The position numbers and the translations under genes are program-made. A stretch of DNA of 64,000 bases, from sequence record NC_135729.1; one strand, given 5' to 3'. A model generated the notes under the pieces. It had not been told where the DNA came from. It saw only the letters and a program-made list of their open reading frames with translations, and did not search any database. Of this stretch, positions 4,306-30,073 are shown in pieces. Positions within the stretch are counted from its first letter, which is position 1. Every line of letters starts with the position of its first letter. This stretch comes from a phage.

Positions 4306-4929
4306 CTAAAAGTATTCGTAGAGGTATCCATCGGGGGCTGGAATTTTTTCATGAATGTAGTAATCAACACATATTCCGGTTTCTCTTCTACAAGAATTGT
4401 GGGATACCCATTCTTTAAGAACGTTTCCATTCATGTCCAGCCTCCTTACATTTTTACACCGTCTACCGCTGGTGCTTCTATGCAACAGAATATCCTCCGT
4501 CTGCTTGTCTTTATTTTCTCCCCAGGTCGTTAAACGGATATTATCAAAAGAGTACCCTTTGAAATCATCTATCCTGTCACAAGAAGGCTTTTTCCTTTTG
4601 TCGTATCCGCTGGCTACCCACTGGTCATACAACTCTTTGTAACCGTTCAGGTATAGCCACTCCTTAAACTCTTTTTTGGTGTAAGTCGGAGGAGGGTGAC
4701 CTCTTTGCTTGCTGTTGCACTTTTGAGCCTTGTACAACACGCGTATTACACCTTTTTCTGAAGAGTCGTGGGAAAACTGGTCAGCCTCCCTGCTGGCCTT
4801 CTTACAACACTCTTTGCACTTATTAAGATGACCGTCAGACATCTTTGGGTGTTTGTAGAACTCGGAGAGGTTTTTCACCTCTCCGCACTTGATGCACCTC
4901 TTACAATGCGTGGATTCTACTTTTGCCAT
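4306..4929 (-). CDS. HNH homing endonuclease (free-standing)
   Basis: zinc-finger-like [10 protein letters not shown]...CKECCK followed by [28 protein letters not shown] (His-Me finger, DRID-type); the track ORF starts at 5016 but an internal Met ([12 protein letters not shown]) at 4929 is more plausible. Confidence 0.65.
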
Positions 4930-6172
4930 ATTGCAAACCCACTGGAGCGAAAGGTATGTCATCACAGAAGTCATACTGTGCTGGATTCTGATCCATTGGG
5001 TCATCTTCCTCATCATTTACAGGAGGAGCGTCTACAGTGTTTTGCTGTGGAGCTGCTTCCTGTTTGGCAGCCTGAGGTTCTTGATGGTCAGTTGACCCAG
5101 CACCGTTCTTGATCCAATCGTACAACGGCTCAGCCAGATTAGTCAAGACATCTTTTGCTTCTGCAGTAATTGCCGCTGCAAAATCATCAACTTTCGTTTT
5201 CTTGTCAATACGGCGACAAGCGTTCAACACCGCATTACCGACACTGGCACCTACTTCATCTTCAGTTCGGTTGGTGGCTTGAGCATACTCTTTCTTAAGC
5301 TCAATGGTGACTACGTGCAGTGTTTTAGCCACGCCCAGTGGGTCGTCTACCTTAAACCCGCGATCCAGGATGATTTGCAACGCATTGATGCTATGCCCCG
5401 TTTCCACACCGATAGGGTCGTAAGAGGATTTACGCTTGCCACCAGAGCCTTGAGTGCCGTTCTCTGCCTTAGGGGGATAGGCCTTGAAACCACTGATAAT
5501 GTTTCCGGTGTCTTTGTCAACAATGGCTGCAACACGACCACCTACCACCAGGTCTTTAAGCTGCTCATCAGTTACAACCATAGCACCTTCGCCAATCTTG
5601 TGGTCATTAACAGTAACCACGTTGCCAACAATCTGAGTCACATCACCATAGATGCGTAAAACGTCCTGATTGGCATTCTGCTGAGGTTTCTGCTTCTGGC
5701 CTTGTGATTGTGCACCTTGTTGCTGTTTTTGCTGCTGAGTCGCTGCTGGAGCCTCTCCTGCACCCAGCTTAACCATCTTAGCCAGTGAGCCCTTGTAATA
5801 GGTCTTACCGTTATGCTCGTTTGCCTTCAAAGGGATATTTACGATCCATCCTGGCGTTACGGTTTCCCACTTGTCATCAATCTTAACAGAGACAGAGTCT
5901 TGATGACCTGGTTTAAGCAGCTTATCACCCATGCTGATCCAGACTTCTTCACCACCTTGAAGCAGGTTATCAGAGGAATCCAGTTCAGAAATCAGTAAAG
6001 AGATGGTGTGGCTGGATTCAATTTTCTTACCTTGCCACACAGTGGTTTTAATACCTGTTGTAGGATCAGCACCTTTGATAGGCTTGATGCTAACACGTTT
6101 AATCATGCCGTGAGCCAGTAAAACAGTTTCACGCGGATTCATTGGGTTAGCGAATTGTTGAATAACGCTCAT
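4901..6172 (-). CDS. protein with SSB-type acidic C-terminal motif (putative ssDNA-binding or SSB-interactome protein)
   Basis: Q-rich linker ([22 protein letters not shown]) and near-C-terminal YDFCDDIPF resembling the bacterial SSB tail MDFDDDIPF, but followed by a 15-aa extension; the N-terminal fold was not recognised. Confidence 0.4.
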
Positions 6173-23011: not shown

Positions 23012-24196
23012 TTAAGCTTTAGCTAAAATGGCGCTAAACTCTTCACCAAACTCTTTTACAATCTTCATCAGGTTTGGGTACGCTTTGATCAGTTGAGCAA
23101 CGATCTTGTCACGCCCTTTACCGATAAGCAAGGCATTTCCTAAGGCGTTAGGTTTCATCATCGCCATAAAGACTGAGAATACAAAATCTCGGTTCTCGTC
23201 CTTGAAATTTTCCCAAAGGAAATCGAGGAAGTTTGCCACACAGCTAACAAGATCTTCGTCAGAGATACTTGCATTTTCCATCATATTACGAATAGCGATA
23301 CAACCTTCAGACCCAAGAATCCACAAGATGTCTGGCTGCTTAGGCCCTACGTATTCTTTGCAACCCCCTGCCATAATCCGACCGATTTCCGGTAAATTGC
23401 GTTTCTTGGTGTGGTAGGTCCAGATCTCTACCGCTGCAGTGTGACCAATAGCACCTTGCAGAAGAACACGGGCCATAGCGTCAGAAATAATACCGCTGTC
23501 AAAATCGTGCAGGATATCAGATGCAGCAACCCAAGATCGCGGTGTGGCAAAAGATGGGCAATTAATCTCAGCCATAGCCTCATAATTATCAATAGCTGAC
23601 GGAACTCTTTTCAGATACCCAATTACAGAGGAGTGCACTCCATTAAGGAATGCGTAGTCCTCAATAAACACCTCTGCATTGCTTGTAACTTCTACAATGA
23701 TAAAACGGTTAGCCAGAGGGGCTTCAAGCGCCGAAAGAACCGCACCATCTGTAGAACGGTTACCTGCAGCTACAAAAACAGAGCCCTTAGGGAATGCATA
23801 GGTGCCGCACTTGTGGTCGAGCATAATTTGCATTGCAACCTTTTGCAGGTAACTATCTGCATGAGTAAGCTCATCCAGAAATATAATTCCGCTCCAGTCC
23901 GGATCTGCAGGCCAGAATTCTGGAATTGCAAACACTGTACGTGCAGTTCCATCCGCTTCTACAGGGATAGGTAGCCCAGATAAGTCGGCAGGATCTTTAT
24001 CTGACAGTCGCACGTCAACCAGGTTGTCATCTCGCTCACCGAACATATTATCGGCGATCTGCTTCATCACCTGGCTCTTCCCCACGCCCATTGGTCCTAA
24101 AATCAGGACAGATCGGTTATGACGTTGGGCAAACTGAATGATAGCTGGCAACTCACGGACAGTGATTTGACCACTTTCAAATACGTTTCTTGACAT
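23012..24196 (-). CDS. AAA+ ATPase, MoxR-like (AAA_5)
   Basis: Walker A LILGPMGVGKSQ; Walker B IIFLDELTHA; sensor-1-like VFVAAGN; LANRFIIVEV. Confidence 0.75.
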   Translation of the reverse strand: MSRNVFESGQITVRELPAIIQFAQRHNRSVLILGPMGVGKSQVMKQIADNMFGERDDNLVDVRLSDKDPADLSGLPIPVEADGTARTVFAIPEFWPADPDWSGIIFLDELTHADSYLQKVAMQIMLDHKCGTYAFPKGSVFVAAGNRSTDGAVLSALEAPLANRFIIVEVTSNAEVFIEDYAFLNGVHSSVIGYLKRVPSAIDNYEAMAEINCPSFATPRSWVAASDILHDFDSGIISDAMARVLLQGAIGHTAAVEIWTYHTKKRNLPEIGRIMAGGCKEYVGPKQPDILWILGSEGCIAIRNMMENASISDEDLVSCVANFLDFLWENFKDENRDFVFSVFMAMMKPNALGNALLIGKGRDKIVAQLIKAYPNLMKIVKEFGEEFSAILAKA

Positions 24197-24504
24197 TAGT
24201 AAAAGTCCTCTACTTGTGTGTAAGTGTTTTCAAAGTTTTCCAAAACAGATGCCACATCGGATCTGTCAATATCGTACACAACTTCCCAGTTGTATGCAAC
24301 CCTTTCTGCTGTTGCTTCTTCAGGACTTAGCCGTCTACTGGGGTGAAAGAATGTTGGGGTACACCTTCTTAGTTGTCTTCCGGTTTTCCCATAACAATAT
24401 CTGTGGATAACTTTGTCAAAATTTAACTCTTTTTCTGCACAAAGTTCGTGTTTCTGGTATAACATGTTTATTACTCTTCTAAGCGGCATCCCTGCCACCA
24501 CCAC
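24196..24504 (-). CDS. hypothetical protein
   Basis: 102-aa ORF. Confidence 0.35.
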   Translation of the reverse strand: MVVAGMPLRRVINMLYQKHELCAEKELNFDKVIHRYCYGKTGRQLRRCTPTFFHPSRRLSPEEATAERVAYNWEVVYDIDRSDVASVLENFENTYTQVEDFY

Positions 24505-24507
24505 CTG

Positions 24508-24888
24508 CTAGAATGCAGTTCGAATCCAGACAAGGTTCTTATCTGCCCAATCATAGAGGCAAGTCATTGCGCTATTGAATTGCTCACACGGAGGATAATC
24601 TTCTTCCATCTGGCGCATAGCAGAGCCTTGTGGGTAAAGCTCCCGTGCTGCAAGCCACGCATCGTAGTCATCCACGGTATCGAAGTAGTATACAACATCC
24701 TCCAACTCAGGATCGAACTTTGAATTATCAGGATCCAGTTGTTCAGGGAACTTGGAGCGTAACTTGCCAGCCACAATGCTTGCCAACTCGCTAACATGCT
24801 TATTGTCCCACTCTACTAGTTTCCCGTCTTCAGCGATGCGTCCTAACCACTGATCATGAAGGTCAACTGTTGTCTTCCACCGGGCCAT
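24508..24888 (-). CDS. hypothetical protein
   Basis: 126-aa ORF. Confidence 0.4.
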   Translation of the reverse strand: MARWKTTVDLHDQWLGRIAEDGKLVEWDNKHVSELASIVAGKLRSKFPEQLDPDNSKFDPELEDVVYYFDTVDDYDAWLAARELYPQGSAMRQMEEDYPPCEQFNSAMTCLYDWADKNLVWIRTAF

Positions 24889-24890
24889 TA

Positions 24891-25148
24891 TCAGTCCACC
24901 TCTTCTTCTCGTTGCAGTTCAAGATACCCGTAGGTCTGGATATCTTCAAGGGTGTGGAAATCCCCATCTGCCGCTAAGGCACGAACAACTTGGCACAAAA
25001 CCTTATGAGGAACTTCATCCAGACCAAGATTCAGTGCAGGAAACACCTTATCTAAGTCAACAAAATAAACGAACTGTAGCTCACCAGCTTCAAAAGGTGT
25101 ATCTTCAATAAACATCTTCTCGGCATTAGTCAAGATCTGCACTTTCAT
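24891..25148 (-). CDS. hypothetical protein
   Basis: 85-aa ORF. Confidence 0.35.
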   Translation of the reverse strand: MKVQILTNAEKMFIEDTPFEAGELQFVYFVDLDKVFPALNLGLDEVPHKVLCQVVRALAADGDFHTLEDIQTYGYLELQREEEVD

Positions 25149-25525
25149 TATTCTGCCTCCTCTTCTTTTTCTTCGGCGTTAGTTTCAGTGCTACCCCACT
25201 CTGGAGTTTCCACCCCGATAGTAAACTCACGCACTACACGGTAATTGCCCATGAAGCGCTCCACCTCGTCAAGGCTTATGGCGAGGCCATTGGAAACCAG
25301 GTCTGCAGCACCCTCTTCTACCAGATAGTCCAGATTGGCTTCCAAAGCTTCAGGCTCGAACCCTGTCAATGCAATCAGATAACCTTCCCCTTCATCAGGG
25401 AGGACAATACAGCCCAATTGATTTTCTTTAAAAAGGCAGTGACCATCATTATTGATTGGGTGTTCATTGCAGTAAATAGCTGCACGATAAGTAACTTTAG
25501 ACATCGGTAAGGTCTCCTTAGGCAA
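25148..25525 (-). CDS. hypothetical protein
   Basis: 125-aa ORF, acidic C-terminus. Confidence 0.35.
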   Translation of the reverse strand: MPKETLPMSKVTYRAAIYCNEHPINNDGHCLFKENQLGCIVLPDEGEGYLIALTGFEPEALEANLDYLVEEGAADLVSNGLAISLDEVERFMGNYRVVREFTIGVETPEWGSTETNAEEKEEEAE

Positions 25526-25808
25526 TTGTCATTTTACATTCTTGAAATTTTAACACAAGACGGTGATTGTGTCTAGTGTCTAAAAAGATTTTTTCAACCA
25601 TCAGGCACACGGTATAACCGTCCATCTTGTTGACAACAAAATCTCCAGGATGAGGGAGGATGTCTCCCGGATTGGGGAAACATAGTCCACTCAGAAAGGC
25701 ATCGTCAGTGGTGGACTTAATAGATTTCCACACACTGTCTGCCTGAACATGTTCACCGACGTAATATACATTACCACATGCCTTCATCATAGTCAAACCC
25801 TCGCACAA
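25518..25808 (-). CDS. hypothetical protein
   Basis: 96-aa ORF. Confidence 0.35.
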   Translation of the reverse strand: MCEGLTMMKACGNVYYVGEHVQADSVWKSIKSTTDDAFLSGLCFPNPGDILPHPGDFVVNKMDGYTVCLMVEKIFLDTRHNHRLVLKFQECKMTIA

Positions 25809-26692
25809 ATTAAACTTGTATCAGTATACTTCTTTAATGGGTAAATATCCTGTCCATAGATGCAATCATTAAACACCTCATCTACCCAAAGGCTACACTT
25901 ATATCCCATCATTTCTAAAACGCCCATCTCTTCTTCGGTGAACTTATCACCGCTCTTGCAAGATGTCAATACCTCATTCTGTACTCTTGCTACCTCGAAG
26001 CGGTTATTGGCAATATCACTATTGGCAATCAAATACTCACCTAAAGGGTGTGCAGCATTAAAGATGCACAGTGGACGGTTGACGTAATAGTCTCCCGGTG
26101 TATAAAAATTGTTGAGATCCTTCACCAGAACATTCTTATCAGTCACTTCATTTATAACATCATGCATATCACACATCTTTATATGTTTGAGGATTCCATC
26201 CCCCATCACAAAATAAAAACTTGCTGAGACACTCTCGGCATAGATCTTACTAGATCCGTTGTAGTTGTATTTTACGCGAATGCTTACAGGGGTTTTGCCT
26301 GTCGCGTTAGCCATCATCCAAAGGAACGGAAGTTCAAACCTCTCCTCTGAGGAAACAAAAGGTGAAGTTGCCAGAGATCGGAAACCTCCAGAAAAGTTGA
26401 AAGTTACAGAGCCGCTCCGGCGATATGATACCGCATATTCTACTTTTATATCGACGTACCCATTGGAATAGGTGTGTCCTTCATTATCTAAATATGTCCA
26501 CTTATCAGATCCGGATACCAGCCTACGCTCAATAACCTTCATTACTATAGGAATTAGCGGGTTGGTACAAACCGATTTTGAAGTAGCTTTATCATCTAAA
26601 GCCTCGTAAATTGCAGAAAGGATGTCTCCAGCTGAAAGATTGGTTGTTATATCCTGTTGCCACCGCGTACTAAAACTGTTAAGATTTGCCAT
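25793..26692 (-). CDS. hypothetical protein (first gene of leftward operon)
   Basis: 299-aa ORF; GGAG RBS; directly downstream of the divergent promoter. Confidence 0.45.
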   Translation of the reverse strand: MANLNSFSTRWQQDITTNLSAGDILSAIYEALDDKATSKSVCTNPLIPIVMKVIERRLVSGSDKWTYLDNEGHTYSNGYVDIKVEYAVSYRRSGSVTFNFSGGFRSLATSPFVSSEERFELPFLWMMANATGKTPVSIRVKYNYNGSSKIYAESVSASFYFVMGDGILKHIKMCDMHDVINEVTDKNVLVKDLNNFYTPGDYYVNRPLCIFNAAHPLGEYLIANSDIANNRFEVARVQNEVLTSCKSGDKFTEEEMGVLEMMGYKCSLWVDEVFNDCIYGQDIYPLKKYTDTSLICARV

Positions 26693-26728
26693 GAGTGCTC
26701 CTATGTTAGTTTTCTTTCGAATGGGTGC

Positions 26729-26757
26729 ACTATATCGGAGATTTAGAGTAAAGTCAA
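26729..26757 (-). promoter_or_regulatory. sigma70-like promoter (leftward)
   Basis: minus strand TTGACT (plus 26752-26757) - 17 nt - TATAGT (plus 26729-26734). Confidence 0.45.
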
Positions 26758-26770
26758 CACGTTTTTGATG

Positions 26771-26799
26771 TTGACATCTGTTGAGACAATTGATAAGAT
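26771..26799 (+). promoter_or_regulatory. sigma70-like promoter (rightward)
   Basis: TTGACA (26771-26776) - 17 nt - TAAGAT (26794-26799); its -35 and the leftward -35 are the two arms of the inverted repeat GTCAACA-N9-TGTTGAC (26753-26776). Confidence 0.5.
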
Positions 26800-26830
26800 T
26801 TCTTCACTTACAGAGCACGAGAGACAACTC

Positions 26831-27808
26831 ATGAATCTTGAAAAATATTATACACCAGAAGAGTTAGAGCGCCTGCTCAAAAAATATAGACGCAAACAGA
26901 ATAATGCACGGAAACGAGATATAGAGTTCGACCTGTCGTGGGAAGAATACCTACTATTTGGTAAAAAACTTTTAGGGGAAGGGGTATGCGACTACACCCT
27001 TATACCTTTCGACATGCACACAGATGAAAACGGACTGGGAAATCCTTTCTATCCATCTCTGGAGCGGATAGATGATGAAGGTCCTTACGCAATTGATAAT
27101 TGTTGTGTGGTAGGGTTGAGGTGCAACGCTCTGAAGGACTGTCTGGTAGATAAAAAGACTGCAATATTGATAAAAGACAAAACTGATCGAAAAATTGTCC
27201 AGCAGATGATGCTCCACCTGAGCGAAGAGCGTATGGAGAAATTGAAAGGTGATTATACTTTCGAAGATTTCATCTTGCAATACGGGACAGAAGAAGATAA
27301 ACTAGCACTTTTTGACGAAGAGGAAGAAGATATGTCACCAATGCAGGACTTTAAAAATTTCATGGCTGATCGTGCAGCCAACAAACACATTTCAGATATC
27401 GTAAACGAAACTGTGACAGAAGAAATTGAAGAACAGAACTCTGAAGAGGAAAAAGAGCCTCAGGAGGTCGAAGAGGAGATTGCAGAAGAGGTTCCTGCAC
27501 TGCCTGATGATGTTGAGGTTGCTAAGGCTTACACTTTCTATTGTCAAACGTTCTACGATGCAGGTATGAAAGTTGATCTGTCGTTCAGCCAATTTAAGAG
27601 TTCATATATTCGCAAATGCTGTGCTTTAACTGGTGAACGTCTCGGAGCTGGACTTAAACCGCTGTTGGTGACCGACTGGAATAAAGGTTTCACTAAAGGA
27701 AACTTTATGGTAGTATCTCCAATTATGGAAAAAGCCATGACGGATCTTATGAAGACCACTCGCATGACAATGACTGAGTTGGCAGGTATTTTCAAACACG
27801 TTAAATAA
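26831..27808 (+). CDS. protein with two degenerate HNH-like (DRID-type) modules and an acidic linker
   Basis: N-module PSLERIDDEGPYAIDNCCVVGLRCNALKD and C-module KPLLVTDWNKGFTKGNFMVVSPIMEKAM both resemble [28 protein letters not shown] of the HNH endonuclease at 4306-4929; acidic stretch EEEEDMSP...EEIEEQNSEEEKEPQEVEEE; ATG at 26831 preferred over the TTG at 26765 that lies inside the promoter. Confidence 0.4.
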   Translation: MNLEKYYTPEELERLLKKYRRKQNNARKRDIEFDLSWEEYLLFGKKLLGEGVCDYTLIPFDMHTDENGLGNPFYPSLERIDDEGPYAIDNCCVVGLRCNALKDCLVDKKTAILIKDKTDRKIVQQMMLHLSEERMEKLKGDYTFEDFILQYGTEEDKLALFDEEEEDMSPMQDFKNFMADRAANKHISDIVNETVTEEIEEQNSEEEKEPQEVEEEIAEEVPALPDDVEVAKAYTFYCQTFYDAGMKVDLSFSQFKSSYIRKCCALTGERLGAGLKPLLVTDWNKGFTKGNFMVVSPIMEKAMTDLMKTTRMTMTELAGIFKHVK

Positions 27809-27820
27809 TGACAGGGGCCA

Positions 27821-29302
27821 ATGGCCCCTTCTGGAGTTTTAATGGATAGCAGAAGTTCAGAAATCGTTGCCTCACAGAAAGATGATGCCCTGAGAATGTT
27901 GCAGGCTGCACGTATGTATCTCCTTGAAAAGCTGCCGTTTTATGGCACACTGCTGTCAGGGTTGCAGTTCGTAGAAAACCACACATGGTGCTCCACCATG
28001 GCAACCGACCATAAACGCATCTATTACAGCCCTGAGTTCATTATGGGATTGGCTGATGAACGCAAGGCTATTCTTAAGGCCTCTCTAACTGACAAGCAGT
28101 TTGAGATGGCTGAGGTTTTCTATTCCCCCAAATCTGTGAAAGAGGTGGCCTTTCTTCTGTCGCATGAGGTGGGGCATATTATCTGTGATCACCTGGTCCG
28201 TGGTAAAAGCTTTGAGCCGGAACTGTTCAATATTGCTTGTGATCACGTTATCAACACAGGCCTTGTGGTTGACTTTAGCAAACCTCCTTGTGTTTTCTTC
28301 TCGAAGGGGAAAAGCACTACGTTCGTGAAAGGTAAGCCTTTTGGCTTCTTAGCCAGCTGCTACTGCGACATGAAGTTTCATGGATGGATTGCTGAGAACG
28401 TTTATGCAGTTCTTGATAAGCAAAGAGATCAGAATAACGGTAAAAGTAAGAGCGGTAAAGGTGAGAACTCTCAAGAAGATAAGCGACAAACCGATGATCA
28501 CATGAGTGGTAACGGTGGCACCAGTGATGATCTTGGAAAGGCTATGGGGTATGATCAGCCACAACCTGTAATCAGTCAATCTGATAAAGATCAGGCCATG
28601 CAGGACTCTGGTGACATGCTGGAGGCAGCAATGCAAGCTTCCGGAGGCCGTTGCCCTGAGGCGGTTCGTGAGTTTGTCAAGAATAGAGGTAAGCCTGTAA
28701 TTAATTATATAGACATCATCAAGCAACGCATGTTGTCTAAACGAAAGGCTGAACTGACCTACAGAAAACCTGGTCGCCGATCTGGGTCTTTGACCAGCAC
28801 AATGCGAAAAGTTGGGGCTATAAACAAGAACCAGCACGTTATTGTTCCTGGTCGTAATCCGGAAAACACCATAGATATTGTGGTAGCTTTAGACGTTTCT
28901 GGCTCGATCTCTCAAAGAACTTTAAAGAAAATGTTCAATGAAATCACCGGATTGTGCAATCTGTATAAAGAGTTTAAGGTTACAATGTTCTGTTGGTCAA
29001 CTGAAGTCGGAGAGGTTAAAGTATACACTCGCGGCAACATAGACGAGATGATCAACTATGAGGTACACTCAACATGGGGCACAACAGCTGCTTGCGTGTT
29101 CGAGTATCTGGATGCCAACATACCGAATGCAAAAGATGTCATCGTCCTGACCGACCTATACTTTGAGCATAACTTTGAACAAAAGGCTGTTGACAACAAG
29201 TGGAAAAAGTACGATACTTTATGGGTTCTCACCGAAGGGTATAATAAAAATTATATCCCTAGCTTTGGGAAAACTGTGGAATTAATCGAGTACGCTAAGT
29301 AA
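27821..29302 (+). CDS. putative metallopeptidase (HExxH) fused to vWA domain (COG3864/DUF2201-like, MoxR partner type)
   Basis: HExxH LLSHEVGHIICDH; vWA MIDAS motif VVALDVSGSIS (DxSxS); 493 aa. Confidence 0.7.
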   Translation: MAPSGVLMDSRSSEIVASQKDDALRMLQAARMYLLEKLPFYGTLLSGLQFVENHTWCSTMATDHKRIYYSPEFIMGLADERKAILKASLTDKQFEMAEVFYSPKSVKEVAFLLSHEVGHIICDHLVRGKSFEPELFNIACDHVINTGLVVDFSKPPCVFFSKGKSTTFVKGKPFGFLASCYCDMKFHGWIAENVYAVLDKQRDQNNGKSKSGKGENSQEDKRQTDDHMSGNGGTSDDLGKAMGYDQPQPVISQSDKDQAMQDSGDMLEAAMQASGGRCPEAVREFVKNRGKPVINYIDIIKQRMLSKRKAELTYRKPGRRSGSLTSTMRKVGAINKNQHVIVPGRNPENTIDIVVALDVSGSISQRTLKKMFNEITGLCNLYKEFKVTMFCWSTEVGEVKVYTRGNIDEMINYEVHSTWGTTAACVFEYLDANIPNAKDVIVLTDLYFEHNFEQKAVDNKWKKYDTLWVLTEGYNKNYIPSFGKTVELIEYAK

Positions 29303-29308
29303 GAGAGG

Positions 29309-29575
29309 ATGTTATTTATGGCAACAGAGGTAGTAATTAAAGCTGAACGCCCAGTTAAAAAAGCTATCAACACGTTCCCTGTGGGAACCATTGTGAGCAT
29401 GATCACAGAGTCAGGTCGTGTATCTACGCTGCTGATTGTGAAATCTGCATGTTCTTCTTGTGTGTGGGCTTACGATCTGGACAAGAAAGAACTAAAATAT
29501 TTTGTTGGGGAGCTGAAAGCAACCGAGCTCGATGCTCGTATCGAAGTATTTGGTGAAACTATGGAGGAAGAGTAA
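29309..29575 (+). CDS. hypothetical small protein (paralog family, member 1)
   Basis: FPVGTIVSMITESG... ; 4-nt ATGA-type overlap with next gene. Confidence 0.4.
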   Translation: MLFMATEVVIKAERPVKKAINTFPVGTIVSMITESGRVSTLLIVKSACSSCVWAYDLDKKELKYFVGELKATELDARIEVFGETMEEE

Positions 29576-29838
29576 TGACCACGAAAATCACTATTGCAGA
29601 ACCGAAAGCTAACACGCAACCTATCGAAAAATTTAAATGTGGTGAGGTGGTAACATTTACACCAGATAATGAAGATGCTAAGATTTTCGCCATGGTCACA
29701 GCTGAGTGGATGTGCGACAATACCACACAGGTTCTGCGTTTTGACACCTATCTTACCGATGAAATCAGGAACGACAAGATCGTGACTGGTGTTGATACTG
29801 AAATTATTTTCTACAAGAGCTTTTTAGAGGGTTTCTGA
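29575..29838 (+). CDS. hypothetical small protein (paralog family, member 2)
   Basis: FKCGEVVTFTPDNED... similar architecture to neighbours. Confidence 0.4.
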   Translation: MTTKITIAEPKANTQPIEKFKCGEVVTFTPDNEDAKIFAMVTAEWMCDNTTQVLRFDTYLTDEIRNDKIVTGVDTEIIFYKSFLEGF

Positions 29839-29839
29839 T

Positions 29840-30073
29840 ATGGCAAAAATTCGTAAATTATCCAGCAATCAGGTTGTGAAAGACTTTGAATCTGGAGAGA
29901 TTCTGTATGTTCGTGATGCAGATGACGAAGTTGAAGATCTTGTTATGTTGGTGGGGCACGCTGAGGACGGATGCATCCAAGCTGTTTTTCTTGAAACAGC
30001 TATGGTGCACTGGATAGAGCTGGACTTGAAAGCACGAAAACCTAAAGCAGAAATCCTGATTTACGAAGATTAA
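29840..30073 (+). CDS. hypothetical small protein (paralog family, member 3)
   Basis: FESGEILYVRDADDE... Confidence 0.4.
   Translation: MAKIRKLSSNQVVKDFESGEILYVRDADDEVEDLVMLVGHAEDGCIQAVFLETAMVHWIELDLKARKPKAEILIYED

Follow-up and report, generated by a model that had tools for sequence, protein, structure and literature searches.

An open reading frame (ORF) at 26831-27808 on the + strand of a 64,000-nucleotide (nt) stretch of phage DNA (sequence record NC_135729.1; the whole stretch is hereafter the window) raises the question of whether a protein that resembles a pair of broken nucleases is broken in both halves. The DNA comes from an E. coli myophage of the rV5-like group (Vequintavirus); over bases 24000-30000, its nucleotide identity to ~120 phage records is 90-98%. 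A sequence-only reading of the window had described the product as two degenerate HNH-like modules joined by an acidic linker, possibly a domesticated homing-endonuclease fold used for DNA binding or regulation. From profile comparison and structure prediction, we find that the protein is best described as two tandem copies of one PacI-type His-Me finger module. The parts of the gene, and a free-standing paralogue elsewhere in the window, are as follows.

26831-27808, + strand: coding sequence for 325 amino acids (aa), a predicted two-module Srd-like / PacI-like protein (phrog_3118), from the ORF and a PHROG match
26852-27166, + strand: aa 8-112, the N-module, a predicted PacI-type beta-beta-alpha-metal module with its active-site set retained
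27062-27136, + strand: putative active-site segment E78-R79-I-D81...Y86...N90...N99-x-x-K102, from alignment to PacI
27167-27286, + strand: aa 113-152, predicted helical region after the N-module, with helices running on to ~aa 183
27287-27505, + strand: aa 153-225, acidic spacer, predicted disordered from ~aa 184, from composition and an AlphaFold2 (AF2) model
27506-27805, + strand: aa 226-310 with a terminal helix to aa 325, the C-module, apparently a catalytically dead duplicate of the N-module
4306-4929, - strand: free-standing paralogue, a predicted PacI-like endonuclease with an N-terminal Cys4 zinc ribbon and a DRID...GY...N...N..K motif (phrog_1035, E=4e-41)

Are the two modules copies of one another? 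When the N and C halves were compared directly by BLASTP, the match was not significant (E=1.1); this comparison is too weak to establish homology between them, and profiles were required. At the profile level the modules aligned over 77 columns (hhalign, 97.8%, E=6.9e-13), and they did so again on an independently built 126-sequence alignment (97.6%, E=3e-12), while 30 column-shuffled controls scored at most 13.6 (E at least 0.049) against 64.3 for the real pair. The C-module is also related to the N-terminal module of the phage T4 protein Srd (BLASTP E=1e-3; profile comparison 96.4%, E=1e-9). An exhaustive profile search gathered 1831 relatives at E <=1e-3; in most of the best 150, the length is 230-310 aa and the match falls in two stretches. 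Separate hidden Markov models (HMMs) were built for aa 8-112 (N) and aa 222-325 (C); nine relatives are matched by the N HMM at both positions, and the C HMM finds the N-terminal module of four relatives as well as T4 Srd. These comparisons indicate a genuine, ancient duplication within the protein. Pairwise identity averages 31% in the N-module, 25% in the C-module and 11% in the spacer; both modules appear to be under constraint, with the C-copy still under selection. The two-module build proposed earlier is confirmed by profile-profile comparison with clean shuffle controls, and the arrangement is kept in well over 100 diverse relatives.

The fold was assigned with an AF2 model built on the 126-sequence alignment, which reached a mean predicted local distance difference test (pLDDT) score of 89.7 and a predicted template-modelling (pTM) score of 0.57. 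Both modules show the same predicted order of elements (long helix, short strand, helix, short strands, beta-hairpin, helix). The model places the core of the N-module at E75-79, E91-95 and H96-107 (E, strand; H, helix) and the elements of the C-module at H226-243, H252-259, E278-280, E292-294 and H297-310, and the beta-hairpin-then-alpha-helix (beta-beta-alpha) core of the His-Me finger superfamily is present. Between the modules, helices are predicted at aa 117-129, 132-138, 144-151, 154-165 and 170-183, and Y142 is nearly invariant.

Foldseek against the PDB gave no match at E <=1e-3; its PDB list consists almost entirely of HNH nucleases, with PacI (probability 1.00) as the closest solved structure. 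In BFVD, the matches are phage 'anti-sigma factor' (Srd-like) proteins and giant-virus 'HNH endonuclease' proteins, and the PacI group of the His-Me classification is itself made up mostly of giant-virus proteins (PMC5714182). The Pfam HNH families (HNH, HNH_3, HNH_5, Endonuclease_7 and others) gave no match at E <=1 for either the duplicated protein or its paralogue at 4306-4929, and none in 136 relatives at E <=0.01-0.1. Searches of Pfam, NCBIfam and PDB sequences with the duplicated protein returned nothing relevant, only weak coiled-coil or low-complexity matches in the acidic spacer, under the family cut-offs. Membership in HNH_3, the family named earlier for comparison, is not supported, with no HNH_3 match in these Pfam searches of the two proteins and the 136 relatives, and profile and structure comparison point to a PacI-like fold instead.

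Among the PHROG families, phrog_3118 ('HNH endonuclease') matches the protein over its full length (E=7e-111), with secondary matches to phrog_3322, phrog_1035, phrog_4592 ('decoy of host sigma70') and phrog_1400 ('Srd anti-sigma factor'). The phrog_1400 match reaches aa 217, and in the full-length scan phrog_4592 is matched in two stretches, gaining ~13 bits. Searched alone against the PHROGs, the C-module matches only its own family, phrog_3118, and its profile shows no significant match to the PacI sequence. It is assigned to the His-Me fingers because it is homologous to the N-module and has the predicted topology.

Whether the N-module is degenerate depends on what it is compared with. 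Its profile aligns with the PacI sequence (hhalign against a single sequence, 84.6%, E=6.8e-6) in the same register as a phmmer alignment in which the 4306-4929 protein, searched against the PDB, meets PacI (3ldy_A, E=0.17) motif for motif; the PacI side of that alignment reads C-x3-DRSDSFEGYSPQN-x8-N. The PacI sequence used comprises residues 3-114, and PacI numbering is derived from that stretch. N-module and PacI share the pattern DR-x-D-x4-Y-x3-N-x8-N, with E for the first D in the N-module, and the aligned positions are these.

N-module E78: PacI D92
N-module R79: PacI R93
N-module D81: PacI D95
N-module Y86: PacI Y100
N-module N90: PacI N104
N-module N99: PacI N113
N-module C53-x-Y55-T56-G57: PacI C63-G-Y65-C66-G67

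According to three papers (PMC5714182, PMC4081073, PMC3384342), PacI is an exception among HNH enzymes in that it works without a catalytic His, a loop Tyr taking that role, and holds a single metal ion with Asp and Asn. The active configuration of the PacI group, as described in two of them (PMC5714182, PMC4081073), has Arg at the place of the catalytic His together with the loop Tyr; the PacI 'DR', Tyr and 'CxxCN' residues are listed in PMC11529989. Conservation was counted in the alignment of 126 relatives, where mean column identity is 15%. Only R79, Y86 and N90 are invariant (126/126). Position 78 is E in 112/126 and D in 14/126, N99 is N in 122/126 and H in 4/126, and K102 is kept in 123/126; the near-invariant columns are K22, R29, C53, Y55, N99, K102, Y142, Y234, C264 and N291.

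The same positions can be followed in the C-module. A catalytic His at the end of strand 1 is absent from both copies, the residue being R79 in the N-module (126/126) and T281 in the C-module. The PacI DR dipeptide corresponds to E78-R79, with the Arg invariant, in the first copy and to V280-T281 in the second; the loop Tyr to Y86 (126/126) and to F287, a variable position; and the metal-ligand Asn/His on the core helix to N99 and to E300, an unconserved position. Altogether, V280, T281, F287, E300 and M303 sit at the E, R, Y, N and K positions of the C-module and vary family-wide, and C264, D282 and N291 are kept there. The C-module thus gives an internal control: what both copies retain is probably structural, and what the N-copy alone retains is probably functional. 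Because the residues at the catalytic positions are kept in the N-module and lost in the C-module of the same proteins, the N-module is predicted to hold a working active site.

Both motifs quoted earlier as altered are found (ERIDD at aa 78-82, VTDWNKG at aa 280-286), and the description 'degenerate' fits the C-module, where the functional residues are lost. It does not fit the N-module, which retains the PacI set with E for D. The 'DRID type' appears to be the active PacI-type configuration and not a degenerate HNH; by alignment, the sole departure of the N-module from the PacI/DRID set is Asp to Glu, and only the C-module looks like a dead copy.

PacI (PDB 3ldy/3m7k; group 20, PMC5714182) is a homodimer (142 aa) in which each subunit holds two Cys4 zinc sites. 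The phage protein has two modules per chain, the second apparently inactive, with ~110 residues of helices and acidic spacer between them; and PacI is a bacterial restriction enzyme, whereas the phage protein is the product of a core phage gene. Inactive His-Me fingers are known in the Smad MH1 domain and the Enpp nuclease-like domain (PMC5714182), which, like the C-module, keep the fold without the His or a Tyr substitute. These are unrelated in sequence, and the dead copy described here differs in adjoining a live-looking paralogous copy in one chain.

Some relatives (for example P0115, P0129, P0138, P0139, P0145, P0166 and P0168) carry two tandem modules, each with a complete DRxD..Y..N..N set. 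They keep both sites, in contrast to the present family, whose second copy has lost the DRxD..Y..N..N residues, and they are candidates for naturally occurring PacI-like dimers in a single chain. A likely history is that a tandem single-chain version of a dimeric enzyme arose and that the second site was then inactivated in the lineage of the 26831-27808 gene. The seven named here are metagenomic, and some (P0129) have an N-terminal zinc-ribbon-like segment.

T4 Srd (NP_049634; phrog_1400) is the relative with a published activity. The N-module matches it by BLASTP (E=5e-7) and by hhalign (98.7%, E=2.5e-16), and its N-terminal module has the same signature, E-R-x-D...Y...N...N..R/K, and the same predicted topology; the T4 motif, LERFD...GY...N...N..R, carries the E-for-D change seen in the N-module. 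Residues 108-325 of the duplicated protein and residues 95-248 of Srd are unrelated by hhalign (0.1%). In the model of T4 Srd (pLDDT 86.9), a single module precedes three long helices (aa 122-222), everything past aa 93 being helical, and no cryptic second module was found in T4 Srd by profile or structure prediction. Both genes lie in phage genome regions for early functions. The protein appears to be a relative of Srd and not its orthologue, and this homology, with one module shared, makes a role in regulation or host takeover plausible. Qi et al. 2015, as cited in PMC7430671, PMC13232886, PMC4980113 and PMC9409239, reported that Srd attaches to RNase E at its catalytic N-terminal half and speeds host mRNA decay, and the T4 srd record carries the note 'postulated decoy of sigma factors RpoD and RpoS'. 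Literature searches found no paper that links Srd with an HNH, PacI or nuclease fold or that gives a function for the rV5 homologue.

As a side observation, T4 Srd (L001:3040-3786, - strand) retains all the PacI-type equivalents (E64, R65, D67, Y72, N76, N85 and R88). All except D67 are invariant in the aligned T4-like homologues, some of which have Asn at 67.

What might such a protein do? We see about an even chance that its two modules form an asymmetric, PacI-like unit in one chain, which binds or cuts nucleic acid in host takeover. Contact with the phosphate backbone would fall to the N-copy, which would probably also cut one nucleic-acid strand via Tyr86, with the metal held on Glu78 and Asn99. 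The dead C-copy would be the counterpart of the second half of the PacI homodimer, providing a second binding surface for substrate or partner. The result would be either a one-site asymmetric enzyme or a protein that binds, and its work, like that of T4 Srd, would fall early in infection, during the takeover of the host. Duplication, fold, residue conservation, synteny and kinship with Srd and PacI are shown by the analysis; in this scheme we infer the catalysis, the substrate (DNA or RNA), the packing of the modules and the timing of expression.

Several points weigh against this proposal. The link to PacI is weak by sequence alone (phmmer E=0.17; hhalign 84.6% with a single sequence). The metal-binding Asp, PacI Asp92, has become Glu in the clade (112/126), a conservative substitution that might nonetheless alter catalysis or remove it. 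Neither of the two Cys4 zinc sites of PacI is present: C53 and C264 are the only conserved Cys, PacI C66 pairs with T56, and C109 and C112 pair with positions that vary or hold other residues. With a pTM of 0.57, the model leaves the relative orientation of the modules, and any packing like that of the PacI dimer, unfixed. T4 Srd has a helical C-half in place of a second module, and with only the N-module shared the transfer of function is uncertain. Finally, the activity published for Srd is stimulation of RNase E and not nuclease action of its own, and it is known for T4 only.

In a different explanation, neither module cuts and the protein is a non-catalytic Srd-like adaptor; its conserved N-module pocket would be a surface for protein or RNA that docks onto host RNase E, at the catalytic N-terminal half, and promotes the decay of host mRNA. 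The homology of the N-module to T4 Srd and the matches to phrog_1400 and phrog_4592 agree with this, as does the report, in the papers cited above, that Srd binds the N-terminal domain of RNase E and raises its activity; the departures from PacI, Glu for Asp and no zinc sites, could be signs that catalysis has been lost, and Smad MH1 and Enpp show that inactive, binding His-Me fingers exist (PMC5714182). However, R79, Y86, N99 and K102 are invariant or nearly so in the N-module and freely lost in the C-module, which is the pattern of an active site and not of a generic interface; outside the N-module the protein and T4 Srd are wholly different; and the family is found in phages of many hosts. 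We regard an adaptor as possible but unlikely. Annotation labels in many GenBank records, transferred from the 'postulated decoy' note on T4 srd, are all that favours an anti-sigma factor, or a sigma-70/sigma-S decoy, that binds core RNA polymerase or sigma and shuts off host transcription. Neither the protein nor the 126 relatives have a Pfam match to a sigma-70 region, no known anti-sigma domain is matched in Pfam or NCBIfam, the predicted fold is a His-Me finger, and the only experimental function cited for Srd concerns RNase E and not sigma. Such a role is scarcely credible. A bolder version of the nuclease proposal would make the Srd-family proteins, T4 Srd included, active Tyr-dependent beta-beta-alpha-metal endonucleases, with the RNase E 'stimulation' due at least in part to their own cuts and the two-module rV5 form acting as a single-chain asymmetric nickase. 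His-Me nucleases leave 5'-phosphate ends, which are the preferred entry point of RNase E. This version is doubtful, and we offer it as speculation.

Distribution across phages bears on whether the gene is instead a selfish, mobile, free-standing homing endonuclease with a duplicated domain, as the 'HNH endonuclease' label in PHROG and several GenBank records and the module shared with the mobile-looking 4306-4929 gene would allow. By tblastn, 204 phage records match the protein, 194 of them at >=80% coverage, and 117 records match at >=80% identity, of ~120 rV5-like genomes. In GAP31 and Hena1, which represent other Vequintavirinae genera (37-41% identity), the gene is again the first rightward gene at a divergent junction, downstream of a leftward MoxR-containing block and followed by a small ORF and then the vWA gene; in Aeromonas phage phiA009 the gene context differs. 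Sporadic presence and absence among close relatives, a trait of homing endonucleases, was not seen. The gene appears to be a fixed, syntenic and probably early core gene, vertically inherited and not mobile. In contrast, the 4306-4929 gene is found in ~51 rV5-like records at >=80% identity and then in unrelated siphophages, podophages and N4-like phages (of Vibrio, Ralstonia, Acinetobacter and Shigella), a patchy distribution consistent with a mobile homing endonuclease. For the duplicated gene, homing is a very improbable explanation. Another possibility places the function in the spacer. The acidic linker noticed earlier is borne out, with 27 D/E per 73 residues and a net charge of -22 at aa 153-225, a pLDDT of 47-71 at aa 161-220 and no predicted secondary structure at aa 184-225; a segment of this kind, predicted to be disordered, could mimic nucleic acid and titrate host proteins that bind DNA or RNA, the modules being mere scaffolds. 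Yet the median linker charge is -1 across 139 two-module relatives, so that strong acidity appears to be a trait of the rV5-like clade and not of the family, and conservation is at its lowest in the spacer (11% pairwise identity), with a conserved module on either side. We give this idea very little credence.

Returning to the proposal of an asymmetric PacI-like protein, the earlier suggestion of a domesticated fold used for binding or regulation can be kept in part: a fixed, syntenic gene agrees with domestication, and a purely non-catalytic version is not the best reading, given the retained active site of the N-module. The resemblance to the 4306-4929 protein claimed for both halves likewise holds directly for one. 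The N-module matches that protein by local BLASTP (E=0.004), a broad N HMM matches its aa 63-143, and the two proteins match the same positions of the phrog_1035 profile; the C-module is related to it only indirectly, via the N-module. The paralogue (signature D-R-D-Y-N-N-K), labelled 'endonuclease VII', has a single module, a Cys4 zinc ribbon like that of PacI, and Asp where the duplicated protein has Glu. A longer ORF for it runs to 5016, and its 5' end overlaps the 3' end of an upstream 423-aa ORF (4901-6172).

The family is already catalogued, under loose labels ('HNH endonuclease', 'anti-sigma factor', 'anti-termination protein', 'hypothetical protein') that carry no structural rationale. 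In the searchable literature we found no assignment of the family and T4 Srd to the PacI-type Tyr-dependent branch, no account of an internal duplication with one live and one dead site, and no account of relatives with two live sites. A PacI-type module with a conserved active site in this protein and in T4 Srd would provide a testable handle on Srd-like host takeover, and the sigma-decoy annotation would be corrected. With a live-looking and a dead copy in one chain, a dimeric restriction-enzyme-like fold would have been turned into an asymmetric single-chain protein, and comparison of the internal paralogues sorts structural from functional residues with no experiment needed.

The coding sequence runs from ATG 26831 to a stop at 27806-27808, and its frame is nested within a longer ORF that starts at TTG 26765. 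One further feature bears on the start.

26771-26799, + strand: sigma-70-like promoter candidate, TTGACA-17 nt-TAAGAT, TG-extended, with 10/12 matches in a consensus scan; a pattern match only

ATG 26831 is favoured as the start because this promoter candidate falls within the longer TTG ORF, 5' of the ATG, and because the equivalent Met is the start in distant homologues. The gene opens a + strand block (26831 to ~33307), the genes to its left (25793-26692 and beyond) lie on the - strand, and 13 nt separate it from the downstream vWA/metallopeptidase gene at 27821-29302 (+ strand). The ORF map agrees with its description as the first gene of the rightward island, directly before the vWA protein. 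A functional link with the vWA gene was considered and rejected: the adjacency holds within the Vequintavirinae and is absent in phiA009, and it looks like lineage synteny.

The vWA gene product (27821-29302) has a DUF2201_N metallopeptidase domain (8e-29, with an HExxH-like HEVGH) and a VWA-like DUF2201 domain (3e-11) in Pfam. It is labelled 'HNH endonuclease' by phrog_1314 and in the GAP31 and Hena1 GenBank records, probably a propagated mis-annotation. A MoxR-like AAA+ ATPase (phrog_1297, 23012-24196, - strand) and this gene, its usual vWA partner, lie on opposite strands ~3.6 kb apart and flank the divergent promoter region; Cronobacter phage GAP31 and Erwinia phage Hena1 show the same split. 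Sixteen records labelled 'Campylobacter phage' (MG065682, MG065658, MG065661 and others; host given as C. jejuni) are 97-100% identical to the present E. coli phage, and their host label looks doubtful.

The 138-nt divergent intergenic region contains a perfect palindrome, GTCAACA-N9-TGTTGAC, at 26753-26775, which overlaps the -35 hexamers of the rightward (26771) and leftward (26757) promoter candidates. It could be an operator for divergent early promoters; it is unique in the window, and equal stringency was reached in 37/100 shuffles, which puts it within chance. The octamer TGTTGACA occurs 13 times in the window against 3.95 expected, a count that 0/100 shuffles reached, at sites that include 3825, 5515, 13106, 26769, 29188 and 31302. 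This enrichment suggests that the octamer may be a shared extended -35 element of the phage's promoters.

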